A stretch of DNA of 64,000 bases from Hyphomicrobiales bacterium (GTDB lineage: Bacteria; Pseudomonadota; Alphaproteobacteria; Rhizobiales; Rhizobiaceae), in the NCBI GenBank assembly GCA_017305835.1, contig JAFKJY010000042.1, forward strand, positions 36,110-100,109, read 5' to 3'. Shown one piece after another: positions 2,946 to 48,755 of the stretch. Made by a program: the position numbers and the translations under genes. Positions within the stretch are counted from its first letter, which is position 1; each line of letters starts with the position of its first letter. The notes under the pieces were generated by a model that was not told where the DNA came from, ran no database searches, and saw only the letters and a program-made list of their open reading frames with translations.

Positions 2946-3020
2946 GCGCCCATCGTCTATCGGTCAGGACGCCACCCTTTCACGGTGGAGAGAGGGGTTC
3001 GATTCCCCTTGGGCGTACCA
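2946..3020 (+). tRNA. tRNA-Glu(TTC)
   Basis: Acceptor GCGCCCA/TGGGCGT, anticodon arm CCACC-CTTTCAC-GGTGG, T-loop TTCGATT, encoded CCA. Confidence 0.97.
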
Positions 3021-3021
3021 T
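3004..3021 (+). repeat. attL core TCCCCTTGGGCGTACCAT
   Basis: Exact 18-bp copy at 48738-48755; corresponds to the tRNA 3' end. Confidence 0.92.
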
Positions 3022-3423: not shown

Positions 3424-3438
3424 GAACAGAAAAGGAAC
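3424..3438. promoter_or_regulatory. Alphaproteobacterial LexA (SOS) box
   Basis: GAAC-AGAAAAG-GAAC (GAAC-N7-GAAC) in a divergent intergenic region, next to palindromic TTGACGCGTCAA at 3446-3457. Confidence 0.75.
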
Positions 3439-3494
3439 AAATTCCTTGACGCGTCAACCGGACGGTGGCTTATAGGGCCATCACGAAACGTCAC

Positions 3495-3731
3495 ATGGCA
3501 GCGGAAATGGGAACCGAGCCGCAACCGGCACAGGGCGGCGAAGGCGTGTCCGATCTCGACGCGGCCGCCGACGAGGCGATCGCGCTCTGCGGCGGCGACG
3601 CGCGCGCGGCCGTGAAGGCCCTCCTGGTCCTCAACGGCCACCTCGAGCGCGAGATCGCGATGGCGATGCCGGTGGTCTCGTACGGCTTCTCGCGCGGCTG
3701 GCACCACAGGAACCGGGAGCCTGAGGCATGA
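3495..3731 (+). CDS. Small hypothetical protein
   Basis: First of five overlapping + strand ORFs; start uncertain. Confidence 0.55.
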   Translation: MAAEMGTEPQPAQGGEGVSDLDAAADEAIALCGGDARAAVKALLVLNGHLEREIAMAMPVVSYGFSRGWHHRNREPEA

Positions 3732-4129
3732 CGGCGATCACGTCGCAAATGCGGCTCCGGGCGCGTCGCAGGATGCTGGCCGAGCACTATCCCCACCGGG
3801 TCGGCCTGCCAGAAACGTTCTGCACCTATGAGAACTTCACGGCGCTGAACGACTTCTGCCGGGAACGGTTCGGCGAATACCCGAAGACCGAGAGCATCTA
3901 TGGCGCGTGGGAGGGCTTCTCGGACGGGCAGGAGATGCGCCTGTACTGCTTTCCCACGCCCGAGCAGGCGGCCGAGTTCTGCGCCTACTTCGACGGCCTG
4001 CCATTCGATGAACGCTCTTGCAAAAAGAACGGGAAGGACCGCAGGATCTGGATACTGCCCGGCCTGCCGGCCCATCGCATCCAGCACGGGCCGCTGTCGG
4101 TGCCGAGATGGCTCAGGGAGAACCCATGA
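3728..4129 (+). CDS. Hypothetical protein
   Basis: 133 aa, ATGA overlaps with both neighbours. Confidence 0.65.
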   Translation: MTAITSQMRLRARRRMLAEHYPHRVGLPETFCTYENFTALNDFCRERFGEYPKTESIYGAWEGFSDGQEMRLYCFPTPEQAAEFCAYFDGLPFDERSCKKNGKDRRIWILPGLPAHRIQHGPLSVPRWLRENP

Positions 4130-4317
4130 GGCTGACACTGGACCTCTCCGAAAGCGTCGTCAGGGCGCTCAACGGCCTCGCGCAGTTCCGCAGGCTGACG
4201 CCCGAGGAGATCGCGGCCGAGCTGCTGCAGACTCACCTCGAAGCCGTCGGTGCGATCGGCGGCGACGTCGCCCGCCGGCCACCGCTGCGCATGGCCCGCC
4301 CCGAGGGCAACGCCTGA
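4126..4317 (+). CDS. Ribbon-helix-helix-like small protein
   Basis: MRLTLDLSESVVRALNGLA has the RHH beta-alpha pattern; coupled overlaps. Confidence 0.45.
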   Translation: MRLTLDLSESVVRALNGLAQFRRLTPEEIAAELLQTHLEAVGAIGGDVARRPPLRMARPEGNA

Positions 4318-4991
4318 TGTGCGGCCGCTTCACCCGCATCCATGCATGGCGAGACATCTGGCAGATGTATCGCATCGTCAACAGCGACCCCGGCCGCAAC
4401 ACGGAGGCGCGCTACAACATCGCGCCGACGCAAACGATCGACTTCGTCACCTCTGACGGCGCCGGCAATCACCGGCTGCACGAGGGGCGATGGGGGCTGG
4501 TGCCTCATTGGGCGAAGGAGATCGTCAAGGCGAGCACGATCAACGCGCGCGTCGAGACCGCCGACACGACTGCGATGTTCCGCGACGCGTGGCGCTCGCG
4601 GCGATGCCTGATTCCGGCGGACGGCTTCTACGAGTGGACGGTCAGCACCGAGGACGGCAAGAAAGACCCGTGGTTCATCCACCTGCCCGAGACGCGGCCG
4701 TTTTCATTCGCCGGCCTATGGGCGCACAACGACAAGCTCGGACTGGAAAGCTGCACCATCATCACCACCACGGCTGCCGAGCCGATGCGGAAGCTTCACG
4801 ATCGCCAGCCGGTCATCCTCGACCCGGCCGCCTATGACGCATGGCTCGACCCCGCGACCGCGTCGGAAAGCCTCAAGCCGCTGCTGGAGCGCGATCTGGA
4901 TGGACAACTGCAGTTCTACCGGGTGAGCCGAGCGGTGAACACGTACAAGACACAGGGCGGCGTCTGCATCGAGCCGATCAATCCAGCATGA
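4317..4991 (+). CDS. SOS response-associated peptidase (SRAP/YedK/HMCES family)
   Basis: MCGRF N-terminus, RYNIAPTQ, INARVET, CLIPADGFYEW, HDRQPVIL. Confidence 0.93.
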   Translation: MCGRFTRIHAWRDIWQMYRIVNSDPGRNTEARYNIAPTQTIDFVTSDGAGNHRLHEGRWGLVPHWAKEIVKASTINARVETADTTAMFRDAWRSRRCLIPADGFYEWTVSTEDGKKDPWFIHLPETRPFSFAGLWAHNDKLGLESCTIITTTAAEPMRKLHDRQPVILDPAAYDAWLDPATASESLKPLLERDLDGQLQFYRVSRAVNTYKTQGGVCIEPINPA

Positions 4992-35876: not shown

Positions 35877-36169
35877 CGCGCCGCCCCTGTTTCACGGGAA
35901 GCCACCAGTGTAACCATATGTTCGCGAATGGCTTTCAGGCTCGTTTGCCTGTGTTTCCCGCGCTCGACGAAGGCGTATGGATCGAGCCCCGCCATCTCGC
36001 ACAGGAGCAGGTAGTTGCCGGCCGAGAGCGCCTTGCCGTTGACCGCCCGCGACAGCATCGCCCGGTCGGTCTGCGACCATTTCTGCTCGGCCTGCCGCAG
36101 CGAATAGCCGAGCTCGTCGAGGCGGCTTTGGAACGCATCCGCGAAGGCGTCGAAGCGCACCTCAGCCAT
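35873..36169 (-). CDS. XRE-like HTH protein
   Basis: YSLRQAEQKW..DRAMLSRAVNGK. Confidence 0.6.
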   Translation of the reverse strand: MAEVRFDAFADAFQSRLDELGYSLRQAEQKWSQTDRAMLSRAVNGKALSAGNYLLLCEMAGLDPYAFVERGKHRQTSLKAIREHMVTLVASRETGAAR

Positions 36170-38385: not shown

Positions 38386-38913
38386 TCACCCGTTCGCCGC
38401 CAGCCAGGCGCCGACCTCGTCGGAGGAAGCGCCGAGTGCCGCGGCAATCGCGCCAGCGTCCGCGCCGCCGGCGCGCATGCGCGCGATCAGCCGACGCTCG
38501 TCGGCCTCGAAATGCGGGATCTCGACATCGGCCGAAGGCCGCAAGGGCGACCGCCCGTCGCGCGTCGTCGCGCGCCCCGCCGGAGCGACAGGAGGCGAAG
38601 CCTCCGGTACGTCGCGCGAGGCATAATCCTCTTCCACGAGAGCCCCGACGATCTCGTCGAGCAGATCCTCGTTCCACCACCTCGCCTTGCGGGCGTTGTT
38701 GAGGTGCGCCGAGGCGGCGGCCGGCGAGATGAAGGCGCAGCAGCGCGACAGCCCGGCCTTGCGCGCCTGCGGCCACGCCTCCGTCAGCGCGGCATAGGCG
38801 AGCACGCGGCTGCGTCCGCCCGGCACGCCGGACGCGATCGACAGCGGATCGTCGCCGTGGAACCGCGCGGCCATGACGATGGCCGTGGCTATTCTGTCGG
38901 CCGAGGGGAACAT
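38386..38913 (-). CDS. Hypothetical protein
   Basis: 175 aa between cII and methylase, C-terminal HTH-like segment. Confidence 0.55.
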   Translation of the reverse strand: MFPSADRIATAIVMAARFHGDDPLSIASGVPGGRSRVLAYAALTEAWPQARKAGLSRCCAFISPAAASAHLNNARKARWWNEDLLDEIVGALVEEDYASRDVPEASPPVAPAGRATTRDGRSPLRPSADVEIPHFEADERRLIARMRAGGADAGAIAAALGASSDEVGAWLAANG

Positions 38914-39395
38914 CAGGCCTGCCCCTCGCGCATGACGACCTTGAGGCCACCTTCCGCGCGGCCGGCTGCAGCCGAGCGCTTGCCCTTCACGAGCGCGCGT
39001 TCGAGCCGCTCCATGACGCGACTGAGGTCTGTCAATTCGTTCGGAGTCAGCTTGCCGTCGGCTACCGCCGCACCAAAGACGCCTCCGAGTTGCCCGGAGA
39101 CGACGAGCACCTCCGCCATCGCGGTCATAACGCAGGTCTCGCCTTCGGTGACAGGATCGGACAGCATGCGTCCGTCAATCGCGGCGAGAGCCGCCGTAAC
39201 CACCGGCACCCGGCACTTCTTCTGCAGCGCGATCACCGCAGGCCATGGCATCAGCGTCGGATTCCCGACGTCTGCCCAACGGCCGATCGTGCTGCGCCCG
39301 TACGGCACGATCACCTTGCAGTCGTCGATGCCGCCGCAAAGCCTGACGAGCTCGTTCTGAGCATGCTTGATCATCATGTGCTCGTCGGGGGACAT
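38913..39395 (-). CDS. CII-like regulatory protein
   Basis: LVRLCGGI...STIGRWAD, DGKLTPNE pattern; position after cro. Confidence 0.65.
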   Translation of the reverse strand: MSPDEHMMIKHAQNELVRLCGGIDDCKVIVPYGRSTIGRWADVGNPTLMPWPAVIALQKKCRVPVVTAALAAIDGRMLSDPVTEGETCVMTAMAEVLVVSGQLGGVFGAAVADGKLTPNELTDLSRVMERLERALVKGKRSAAAGRAEGGLKVVMREGQA

Positions 39396-39590
39396 CTCGG
39401 CCTCGCATGCGCGCGCGATCCCGTGGCGGGACAAACACGCGAAAAATCCCCTAGTGGGACGCAACGGATCGATTCACAGTGCGGGCATGGAAACCCGCGG
39501 ACACATCAGCCGGTCACGGCGGCGCGTGAGGCATCGGCAGGAGGCCCAAGGGCGCCTCCTGCCGACCCGGCTCGCTCTCACAGGTGTGGG

Positions 39591-39828: not shown

Positions 39829-39932
39829 GCCGCCCGCGTCCTTCGTGAGCCCCAGGTCGCGGGCGGGGATGGGGTCGGCAGGGCACGCGAGACTCGGCCC
39901 TGCCCGCCCGCGGCCGGAAGGCGGAGCCGCGG

Positions 39933-39981
39933 GAAAGGAAAAGGTCGCCCCGCCGACGCACAGACTTTGCAGCGGGGCGAC
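39933..39981 (-). terminator. Terminator-like hairpin just after cro
   Basis: 10-bp stem GTCGCCCCGC/GCGGGGCGAC followed by CTTTTCCTTT. Confidence 0.45.
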
Positions 39982-40049
39982 AGTCCGGGCGGGAACGCCC
40001 CGGGAGGAATCGATGGGCATCTTGCCCCACGGAGAAACGGCCATGGCGA

Positions 40050-40283
40050 TCATTCGGCCGGCTCCGGCTGGGACAACACAGGAGCAGCGACCGCGGCTGC
40101 AAGCGCCTCTAGCGTAACTCCAGCTATTCCCCTGCCGTCGGCTGACCGCACCATCGAAAGCCAGTATTCCGAAGGAACCGACGAACGGCGGCGCATGGCT
40201 TTCGCTGTCCCGTACTCGACGCCGATGTCGGCGGCGAAGTCCGCGAGTGTCGGCCAGAGGTTGATCAGGTCCGAATGCGTCAT
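40050..40283 (-). CDS. Cro-like regulator
   Basis: LINLWPTLADFAADIGVEYGTAKAMRRR HTH; divergent from cI. Confidence 0.8.
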   Translation of the reverse strand: MTHSDLINLWPTLADFAADIGVEYGTAKAMRRRSSVPSEYWLSMVRSADGRGIAGVTLEALAAAVAAPVLSQPEPAE

Positions 40284-40290
40284 TAGGCGA

Positions 40291-40367
40291 AAGGTACAAA
40301 TCATACCTCAATCTGTCAAGCACGCAGGATATGATTTGTATCCTTGCCGCCGGGTATCTTTTGTACC
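40291..40367. promoter_or_regulatory. OR-type switch: PR promoter and three operators
   Basis: Minus strand TTGACA-N17-TACCTT; GRTA-N7-TAYC operators at 40293-40307, 40328-40342, 40353-40367. Confidence 0.85.
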
Positions 40368-40814
40368 ATGGCCAACGATCTAGAGAAATTTGACAAGCAA
40401 GAGCGCGCGAGCCGGCTGAAGCAGGCGAGGATGCGCGCTGGCATTTCGGGACCAAAGGGAGTGTATGACGCCTCTGGAGGCGCCATCGACATCAACCTCT
40501 ACAAAGGTCATGAATCGGGCCGGAATGCTTTTTCGGTAAGCGAAGGTCGGCGCTATGCCGATCTGTTCGGTGTGCCTCTCACTTGGCTCTACCTCGGCAT
40601 CGGCAGACCGGAGGACGTCGGACTGCCCGGCGCTTCAAAAGAGCTGCGGCAGGCCTTTGCGAAAGTGATCGACGCCCCTCAAGGCGTACAGGATCAGGTC
40701 ATCAGTTTCATAAGGTTCGCGGTTGGCCAGGCTCAGGAGCCTTCGCAATCACCACAAGACCAACACCGTGATCAACATGAACGCGCCAATCGCCACCGTG
40801 CAATAGCGCCATAG
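40368..40814 (+). CDS. CI-like XRE repressor without S24 peptidase domain
   Basis: RLKQARMRAG...HESGRN...YADLFGVPLTWLYLG; only 148 aa. Confidence 0.8.
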   Translation: MANDLEKFDKQERASRLKQARMRAGISGPKGVYDASGGAIDINLYKGHESGRNAFSVSEGRRYADLFGVPLTWLYLGIGRPEDVGLPGASKELRQAFAKVIDAPQGVQDQVISFIRFAVGQAQEPSQSPQDQHRDQHERANRHRAIAP

Positions 40815-40956
40815 CGACGGCAATCTCTGCCGTCTTCCGTTTGACAACGATCTTCGGGTCCATGGGCGGGGCAGCTCCGGCCGCCTCTCTTAGCTCAGCG
40901 ATGATCTCGTCGTTGCGAGTTGCGAACCTTTGCCGGAGCTGGTGCCTGATCGCCAT
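40708..40956 (-). CDS. Small LexA-controlled protein convergent with cI (candidate antirepressor)
   Basis: 82 aa, GGAGG RBS, LexA box ~50 bp upstream. Confidence 0.55.
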   Translation of the reverse strand: MAIRHQLRQRFATRNDEIIAELREAAGAAPPMDPKIVVKRKTAEIAVAMALLHGGDWRVHVDHGVGLVVIAKAPEPGQPRTL

Positions 40957-41002
40957 GTCGCCCTCCATCTCCCTAGGAACACCGTCCTAGCCGCAGAGTC
41001 AA

Positions 41003-41017
41003 GAACATACGCGGAAC
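41003..41017. promoter_or_regulatory. LexA (SOS) box
   Basis: GAAC-ATACGCG-GAAC, adjacent to a minus-strand TTGACT. Confidence 0.75.
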
Positions 41018-41051
41018 GCCTAGGGTTGATTCGTGCCCTCCCCGCCATTGG

Positions 41052-41103
41052 GGTATGATCCGTATCTTTTTCGCTTGCATAGATCGGGTACGTAATGTAC
41101 CTC
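41052..41103 (+). promoter_or_regulatory. OL-type region: PL promoter with two operators
   Basis: TTGCAT(41075)-N17-TACCTC; operators GGTATGATCCGTATC (41052-41066) and GGTACGTAATGTACC (41087-41101). Confidence 0.8.
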
Positions 41104-41133
41104 TCCATTCGCACAACGCGACTGGAGGCCATA

Positions 41134-41727
41134 GTGTCAGCTCTCGACATCAACGACCTTGTCCGGGTCGAGATCACCATCTGGGTGGCGGGCAAGCCCG
41201 TCGATCCTGCGCACGAGCTTGCGGCCGACGCCTGCGACCGCGAGTTGACGCTCAACCTCGGCGCCGACGAGCCGGACAGTCTCGTCTCCACCCTGACGGA
41301 AATCGCCGAAGCGGCGGAGCACCATCGGCTCTACGGCTGGTTGGCGCAGGAGATGGCCAATTTCCCTGCCGGCGCCGGCGAGATCGTCGCGGTCGAGGAT
41401 CACGCCCTGACATGGGCGCGCAAGCTGGCAAAGGATTTCTACGGCCTCGAACTGGACGACACCGATTTCCCGCCCGCGTTCCGGTCCCTCAGCCAGGCTT
41501 CCGCCGGATGGATGCCTGCCTTGCTCGAAGTCGTGCGTTCGCATCTGCCGCAAGGCGATGGAGATCGTCGCCGAGCTTCACGGCCTGCACCGGATCAAGC
41601 GTCAGCCACAGCTCCTGATGTGGTCCAAGCAGAACGTCGGCCTCGCCCGTCACATAGTCCAGCCGCAGACGGGGCCAGCCCTCGGCCGAAAGCTCGGCGG
41701 CGTAAGACGCCAGGAGGGGACGCGTGA
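41134..41727 (+). CDS. First gene of early-left operon, hypothetical
   Basis: GTG with GGAGG RBS downstream of PL. Confidence 0.6.
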   Translation: MSALDINDLVRVEITIWVAGKPVDPAHELAADACDRELTLNLGADEPDSLVSTLTEIAEAAEHHRLYGWLAQEMANFPAGAGEIVAVEDHALTWARKLAKDFYGLELDDTDFPPAFRSLSQASAGWMPALLEVVRSHLPQGDGDRRRASRPAPDQASATAPDVVQAERRPRPSHSPAADGASPRPKARRRKTPGGDA

Positions 41728-48737: not shown

Positions 48738-48755
48738 TCCCCTTGGGCGTACCAT
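48738..48755 (+). repeat. attR core
   Basis: Exact 18-bp copy of 3004-3021. Confidence 0.92.

Follow-up and report, generated by a model that had tools for sequence, protein, structure and literature searches.

The question raised by this locus is how a prophage whose immunity repressor carries no self-cleaving domain would respond to DNA damage in its host. The DNA analysed, referred to as the window, was a stretch of 64,000 nt (positions 36,110 to 100,109 of contig JAFKJY010000042.1, here C43) within the 5.3-Mb genome of a Hyphomicrobiales bacterium (assembly GCA_017305835.1), and its GC content was 66%. In this window the repressor gene cI (40368..40814, plus strand) is faced by a convergent gene for a protein of 82 amino acids (aa), which lies at 40708..40956 on the minus strand, overlaps the 3' end of cI by 107 nt and belongs to the protein family phrog_32610. 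An earlier reading of the letters alone (the original prediction) had proposed this protein, or antisense transcription from its gene into cI, as an SOS-controlled trigger of induction. From the comparisons given below, the small gene is very likely under the control of LexA and is probably part of the lysis-lysogeny switch; that its product is the induction factor, an antirepressor inactivating CI, is rated a little better than even.

The 148-aa CI protein is composed of an XRE-type helix-turn-helix (HTH), a linker, a C-terminal hairpin and a tail. Its family matches were exclusively of the HTH type, namely a weak match to Pfam HTH_19 and matches to phrog_2328 (9.7e-5) and phrog_4, both annotated as 'transcriptional repressor'. 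In an AlphaFold2 (AF2) model made with 51 homologues (mean predicted local distance difference test score, pLDDT, 82.5) the XRE HTH occupied residues 4-76 and was followed by a linker and a two-helix hairpin (residues 91-122), while residues 123-148 formed a low-confidence tail predicted to be disordered. Comparison of the model with the PDB returned XRE HTH folds at template modelling (TM) scores of up to 0.88 by target, including BldD, restriction-modification C proteins, SinR, the Rep protein of phage SPC32H and Stl, with SinR and Rep as weak matches. A genome-wide profile search with Peptidase_S24 (PF00717) gave no match in the 64-kb window and two on other contigs, host lexA and one further gene. 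Because the matches and the fold are of the HTH type only and the S24 domain is confined to other contigs, CI is predicted to be non-cleavable in the lambda sense, and the description of CI as a 148-aa protein without an S24 autoprotease domain was borne out by the family matches, the AF2 model and the empty PF00717 search of the window.

The pair of genes is enclosed by candidate operators. Perfect copies of the 15-bp palindrome GGTA-N7-TACC were found three times in the 64 kb, every one of them in the two intergenic regions flanking the cI/82-aa pair (at up to one mismatch, 16 copies were counted in the window against 3.8 expected). Between cI and the cro-like gene lies an OR-like cluster (40293..40367) with perfect copies at 40293-40307 and 40353-40367 and a degenerate GATA-N7-TATC at 40328-40342. 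On the other side, the OL-like operators (41052..41101) at 41052-41066 (one mismatch) and 41087-41101 (perfect) flank a candidate -35 element, TTGCAT (41075-41080, plus strand), of a rightward early operon, the start of which was placed at GTG 41134 on the plus strand, with GGAGG (41124-41128) five bases upstream, by frame plot. The cro-position gene (40050..40304, minus strand; 84 aa, no family match) and a gene for a CII-like activator (38913-39464, minus strand; weak Pfam match to Phage_CP76 at 6e-4, phrog_101 at 2.6e-14) diverge from cI. CI thus combines an XRE HTH with palindromic operators of its own at divergent early promoters. Since the perfect palindromes flank only the cI/82-aa pair and the cro-position and CII-like genes diverge, CI can be read from the sequence as the immunity repressor of the prophage. 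A diversity-generating retroelement (DGR) would stand under the rightward early operon, and its link to CI, which the original prediction had extended to the small gene as upstream control, is inferred via the CI operators only.

The small gene is preceded by a Shine-Dalgarno sequence, GGAGG, at 40962..40966 (minus strand, direct reading), 5 nt before the ATG at 40956. This start is consistent with the homologues, which open with MAI, and along the overlap the GC frame plot moves from the frame of cI to that of the small gene near 40740-40800. Eighteen close homologues of 70-84 aa were found, and a profile search with the family reached 135 representative clusters. The window protein matched phrog_32610 (PHROGs v4, unknown function) with E = 1.3e-13 over residues 12-72, and this profile was matched by 64 of the 65 family members scanned. 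Pfam held no family for the protein; the same 65 members gave two stray single-member matches, CBM_35 and HTH_ParB. The family is centred on a core of the form MALLHGG.W, and its wider membership hardly varies at M49, H53, G54, G55 and W57. The AF2 model (pLDDT 80) is a helix-helix-beta hairpin for which Foldseek returned nothing from the PDB at E <= 0.001, the Ant protein of SPC32H included; its neighbours in BFVD were only uncharacterised phage proteins and those in the ESM Atlas only hypothetical proteins. An alternative start at ATG 40968 (86 aa) was considered and rejected, as homologues open at MAI and the Shine-Dalgarno sequence precedes 40956.

Among 73 distinct nucleotide sequences of the gene, the entropy at the third codon position (about 1.1-2.0 bits) was far over that at positions 1 and 2. 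The high third-position entropy spans the whole small gene and extends through its overlap with cI; by this pattern the 82-aa protein is under purifying selection. With its Shine-Dalgarno sequence, homologue-consistent start, homologues and mark of selection, the convergent gene overlapping the 3' end of cI is real, as it had first been called. Where the two genes overlap, the small gene's wobble position falls on the second codon position of cI and yet stays variable; the small gene is therefore the selected frame here and the cI tail largely a passenger, which is consistent with the predicted disorder of that tail and with a subgroup of the repressors that stops before it. At 40741-40814, residues ~125-148 of the cI tail (...ANRHRAIAP) are exactly antisense to the MALLHGGDW core, and the stretch looks like a dual-coding one with the tail as its passenger frame. 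Most of the related repressors have a DQSxPAxRRxxxPS-type tail, which is missing in the subgroup L093-L105.

Upstream of the small gene, at 41003..41017 on the minus strand and 47-61 nt ahead of the ATG, lies a LexA box of the alphaproteobacterial type. It reads exactly GAACATACGCGGAAC (GTTCCGCGTATGTTC in the sense of the small gene) and agrees with the perfect GAAC-N7-GAAC that had been reported there. The upstream box of the host lexA gene is GAACAAGACTGGAAC, and the boxes of host uvrA, ssb and a comM-like gene begin with GAACA, the same start as in the window box. Taken alone the box proves nothing, because GAAC-N7-GAAC occurs twice in the window against 1.67 times expected from shuffles, and 84 times in the genome. 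A candidate promoter was placed at 40974..41002 (minus strand), with TTGACT (41002-40997) adjoining the box, a 17-nt spacer and TTCCTA (40979-40974); it was drawn from conservation only. An inverted repeat, AGGAA-N3-5-(G)TTCCTAT, is found over the candidate -10 at 40974-40996 and in related loci (L027-L090), and it is kept amid repressor HTH domains that are unrelated to one another, also at loci that lack a LexA box.

In all, 83 related loci, 74 of them distinct, were gathered; their sources were public contigs, 20 genomes with names, 54 contigs of IMG/VR and phage records. The named genomes comprised Aminobacter, Pseudaminobacter, Tianweitania, Aquamicrobium, Mesorhizobium, Agrobacterium and Shinella, together with several metagenome-assembled genomes (MAGs) that bear no label beyond Rhizobiales, Rhizobiaceae, Bradyrhizobiaceae or Proteobacteria, and a single Castellaniella MAG with a partial match. 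A convergent open reading frame (ORF) of at least 90 aa overlapped the 3' end of the small gene in all 74 distinct loci, by 17-177 nt (mostly 80-107 nt), and was HTH-repressor-like in nearly all of them. For L026 and L047 the choice of the longest ORF fell on a wrong-frame artefact; inspection of L026 showed the repressor. At 50% identity the HTH domains of the adjacent repressors formed 21 clusters, yet the hairpin and tail at their C termini are related.

A perfect sense-oriented GTTC-N7-GTTC stood within 220 nt upstream of the small gene in 39 of the 74 loci, with 25 different N7 spacers, and in at least seven further loci a perfect box preceded an extra first gene of ~82 aa in a two-gene operon. 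These 39 boxes were counted in 16.2 kb of upstream sequence against 17 in the other 242 kb of the same loci, and the upstream density was put at ~70-fold over the rest of the loci. Of the 32 distinct loci in which a TTGAC no more than 130 nt upstream served as the anchor, most, though not all, had TTGAC(T/A)-N17-TTCCTAT, and the box either adjoined TTGAC(T/A) or overlapped the TTCCTAT element, as in GTTCCTATTGTGTTC; both placements correspond, by sequence, to classic repressor positions. L109 and L110, which are more distant members, retained the layout; the isolated Rhizobium phage RHph_N3_2 (EVB98_045/046) kept it too, with the box missing. When the single protein was searched against 400 genomes of the order, one match was true and the others were noise. 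This match (L005; G385:C101, 742-1064), in a genome of the host's own family, is a relic in which two frameshifts compensate each other and a neighbouring repressor is lacking; its perfect LexA box, GTTCCTGTTTAGTTC, lies 75 nt upstream, and the differences between the two small genes are synonymous. It is the recurrence of the box upstream across homologous loci, with varying spacers and at promoter positions, that makes LexA control of the small gene very likely.

Two arrangements in the related loci are recorded here. In four loci without a LexA box (L024, L028, L057 and L063) a palindrome, CCTGA-AGGTAC(A/T)TG-TCAGG, stands ~20-30 nt upstream of TTGACT; a different regulator, taking the place of LexA in these loci, may use it as its operator. 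In L026 (3738-3983), L041, L045, L048, L052, L053, L055, L079, L095 and L103 the small gene is second in a two-gene operon. The first gene, of ~82 aa, has the form M..YVVQSF... ...KLI.A.G..PEEV..M, has the LexA box ahead of it and gave no Pfam or PHROG match.

Membership of the small gene in the lysis-lysogeny switch is held to be probable because its overlap with the gene of a non-cleavable repressor is conserved and lies within an operator-bounded immunity region. The switch that is proposed would work as follows. In the undamaged cell, host LexA would sit on the GTTC-N7-GTTC box adjoining the -35-like TTGACT and keep the small gene silent, and lysogeny would be kept by the 148-aa HTH repressor without autoprotease. 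After DNA damage, RecA-stimulated cleavage of LexA would free the promoter that faces the 3' end of cI. The phrog_32610 protein would then be made and would inactivate CI via a part common to heteroimmune repressors, the C-terminal hairpin or the tail; this site is suggested because the HTH domains fall into 21 clusters but the hairpin and tail are shared, and a direct antirepressor would therefore act through the latter. The same transcript would run antisense into cI and would probably reinforce the switch. Once CI had left the OR-like and OL-like operators, the cro/cII operon would open, and with it the DGR-carrying rightward early operon. As for the original claim of an SOS-controlled small gene acting as the induction trigger, the LexA control now stands on strong comparative evidence and the location inside the operator-bounded immunity region was confirmed; the trigger role itself keeps the lower grade given at the outset.

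Several results weigh against this reading of the protein as an antirepressor. A generic sigma-70 scan found no promoter in 39900-41300, the candidate -10 being a poor sigma-70 match, and a perfect box is missing in about a third of the related loci. The 82-aa protein showed no likeness in sequence or fold to the Tum/DinI-like, GfoA-like or P22/SPC32H Ant antirepressors. The small protein is also conserved in a way that does not follow the repressor, with a median pairwise identity of 57% against 25% for the N domain of CI and 28% for its C hairpin, and no co-variation with the type of CI hairpin was detected, small proteins of 75-79% identity standing beside different hairpins. As there is no signal of co-evolution with CI, a conserved target in the host would be an equally good fit. 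Twin-arginine-like signals occur in some distant relatives, so that repressor binding is not the dedicated task of the core domain. Finally, the true antirepressor could be encoded in a second LexA-boxed operon of this prophage. A separate idea, that the small protein mimics the C-terminal hairpin of CI in the manner of SinI, was rejected at a profile-profile hhalign probability of 0.3%.

The distant relatives concerned are HGG.W members. Twin-arginine-like signal peptides were seen in P0053, P0055, P0077, P0123, P0142 and P0145, and in P0047, P0053 and P0055 the core is present in two tandem copies; the ~40-aa core domain also occurs within apparently exported proteins.

Antisense transcription into cI, the alternative contained in the original prediction, was strengthened by the comparison and is treated as a live rival or co-mechanism, because the small gene is co-directional with the cro-like operon and no terminator was seen between them. 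In its strict form the RNA rather than the protein would act, with the protein as an accessory. LexA-gated transcription would run antisense across cI into the cro/cII operon, cI would be lowered by collision and antisense pairing, and Cro and the early transcripts would be supplied from a promoter outside the control of CI. The 82-aa gene shares its strand with the cro-like and CII-like genes, with cI nested antisense between them, and this gene order was identical in every annotated related locus. A scan of the window gave no terminator-like site on the minus strand from the small gene to the cro-like gene, and even a weak terminator on that strand was present in only 23 of 72 loci; the scan is crude, and Rho-dependent termination is invisible to it. 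The convergent overlap itself is found in 74 of 74 loci, but its length is variable (17-177 nt). Strong purifying selection on the protein, with residues invariant across 135 clusters, would be superfluous for a role of the RNA only, and the strict form is considered rather unlikely. A terminator-like hairpin on the plus strand at 40816..40834 begins 2 nt past the cI stop, inside the coding sequence of the small gene; a terminator after the cI stop inside the small gene was found in only 26 of 72 loci and is not conserved.

The antirepressor and the RNA may also be parts of one device, in which a single LexA-gated transcript would have three outputs: the induction protein, antisense and collision against cI, and read-through into the cro/lytic operon that bypasses the operators held by CI. 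In such a device cI would be nested antisense within an SOS-driven lytic unit, and its disordered tail would be a by-product of the MALLHGG.W core. This combination is entertained tentatively, as a possible but doubtful extension.

The other rival takes up the conserved host target. The 82-aa protein would then be SOS-induced cargo directed at some conserved component of the host (the RecA/LexA circuit, cell division or a protease, for instance), and CI would be inactivated otherwise, the best candidate for this being a product of the second LexA-boxed operon. That operon, which the original prediction did not include, lies just inside the prophage by the tRNA-Glu attachment site. Its perfect LexA box (3424-3438, GAACAGAAAAGGAAC) adjoins a promoter-like TTGACG-N17-TTATAG and is followed by genes for 88 aa (3465-3731), 133 aa (3728-4129) and a SRAP protein (4323-4991; PF02586, 3.5e-63). 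The 88-aa protein has 82 homologues, all unnamed and many in Mesorhizobium, and the 133-aa protein is likewise unnamed. In position and make-up the unit 3424-4991 looks like a Gifsy SOS operon, and the Gifsy antirepressors sit in a comparable separate module. The two perfect boxes of the window both stand on promoters, which argues that both are functional. A cargo role would agree with the conservation of the small protein, which far exceeds that of CI, with its lack of co-variation with the hairpin type, and with the export signals or tandem copies of the distant relatives. Nothing, however, ties the small-gene/SRAP unit to CI, and a host-directed gene would have no reason to overlap the repressor in 74 of 74 mosaic loci with differing flanks; this explanation too is judged improbable, to about the same degree as the action of RNA without protein.

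That the box is a chance match and the gene lies outside LexA control is very improbable: the near-expected count in the window, the absence of a perfect box from about a third of the loci and a spacer (ATACGCG) more GC-rich than those of host SOS genes would allow it, but the GTTC repeats are kept through differing spacers, always in the sense orientation and at fixed promoter positions, and are retained even by the relic copy.

The proposed antirepressor switch has known counterparts. The repressors of Gifsy-1 to Gifsy-3 of Salmonella are served by the LexA-controlled antirepressors GfoA, GftA and GfhA (Lemire et al. 2011, PMC3121763), and in both the Gifsy phages and coliphage 186 such antirepressors serve non-cleavable repressors (PMC3121763). 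The Gifsy phages likewise have short uncleaved repressors and a small gene behind a LexA box, their route runs from LexA cleavage through the antirepressor to release of the repressor, and their antirepressors act on repressors of different immunity. The Gifsy antirepressor belongs to a separate dinI-antirepressor-irsA operon away from the immunity region, whereas the prophage gene overlaps its repressor tail-to-tail and its product has no sequence or fold similarity to the Gifsy antirepressors; it is the second LexA unit of the prophage, with small genes and SRAP, that holds the Gifsy-like position. Coliphage 186 combines a non-cleavable CI with the LexA-repressed p95-tum (Shearwin et al. 1998, as cited in PMC9437464). 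It shares with the prophage a CII of the CP76 family (a weak Pfam match in the prophage) and a LexA-boxed small gene; the 82-aa protein, by comparison, matched neither DinI nor Tum, its gene lies within the immunity region, and cI diverges from cro. Tum itself has 146 aa and a DinI-like half and is encoded at the far end of the 186 genome, and the 186 switch consists of face-to-face promoters.

In the Salmonella phage SPC32H, the XRE-type repressor Rep is inactivated by the antirepressor Ant (PDB 5d4z/5d50; Kim and Ryu 2013, as cited in PMC9437464); Rep was among the weak fold matches of the CI model and Ant was not matched by the 82-aa model. SinR of Bacillus subtilis (PDB 1b0n) is built similarly to CI, with an XRE HTH and a short C-terminal helical oligomerisation hook, and this hook is targeted by a small antagonist. 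SinI mimics the hook, the 82-aa family has no such match, and the Sin system is not under LexA control. In the immunity region of lambda, cI likewise lies between two operator clusters that govern leftward and rightward early operons, with an extra gene (rex) between cI and the OL operators. Lambda CI has the S24 domain and senses RecA itself, unlike the prophage CI, and the extra gene of the prophage differs from rex in being convergent with cI, overlapping it and having its own LexA-boxed promoter.

The principle of a LexA-controlled antirepressor for a non-cleavable repressor is therefore known from enterobacterial phages and is extended here; it is not a new one. What is new is the unnamed protein family and the strict tail-to-tail overlap, unlike the separate modules of Gifsy and 186. 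DNA-damage sensing by the temperate phages of Rhizobiales, whose hosts include Mesorhizobium, Aminobacter, Shinella, Agrobacterium and Rhizobium, is essentially uncharacterised, and a literature search found no paper on a phrog_32610-type family or on LexA-controlled antirepressors in these phages. The proposed switch offers a testable answer for a phage group known from at least 74 distinct loci, from 135 protein clusters and from one isolated Rhizobium phage, and phrog_32610 gains its first functional hypothesis. The overlap and the direction shared with the lytic operon make the locus a good system in which to separate antirepression by a protein from control by antisense transcription or read-through. 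If the switch is as proposed, it would also time expression of the DGR in the CI-controlled early operon, and the layout on which a device with three outputs would rest is conserved in more than 70 Rhizobiales phages of many immunity specificities.

The limits of the prophage were sought in direct repeats. An 18-nt repeat, TCCCCTTGGGCGTACCAT, is found at 3004-3021, at the 3' end of a tRNA-Glu gene (2946-3020), and again at 48738-48755, just past the integrase gene; the copies are the probable attL and attR. Because of these two locations, they probably bound a prophage of ~45.7 kb. A ParB-MT-A70 methylase gene also lies to the left of cI on the minus strand. The assembly that holds the window is of the metagenome type, and the public sequencing runs listed for the stretch were all of bioreactor or wastewater DNA, with no RNA run among them.

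The module was also seen in two records named as Synechococcus phages, OM868082.1 (L032, 11678-12053) and PP438429.1, at 71% identity to the window protein. Their LexA box is of the alphaproteobacterial type, and the small gene is unannotated, a coding sequence having been called on the opposite strand. The true host of these phages may be an alphaproteobacterium from the culture.

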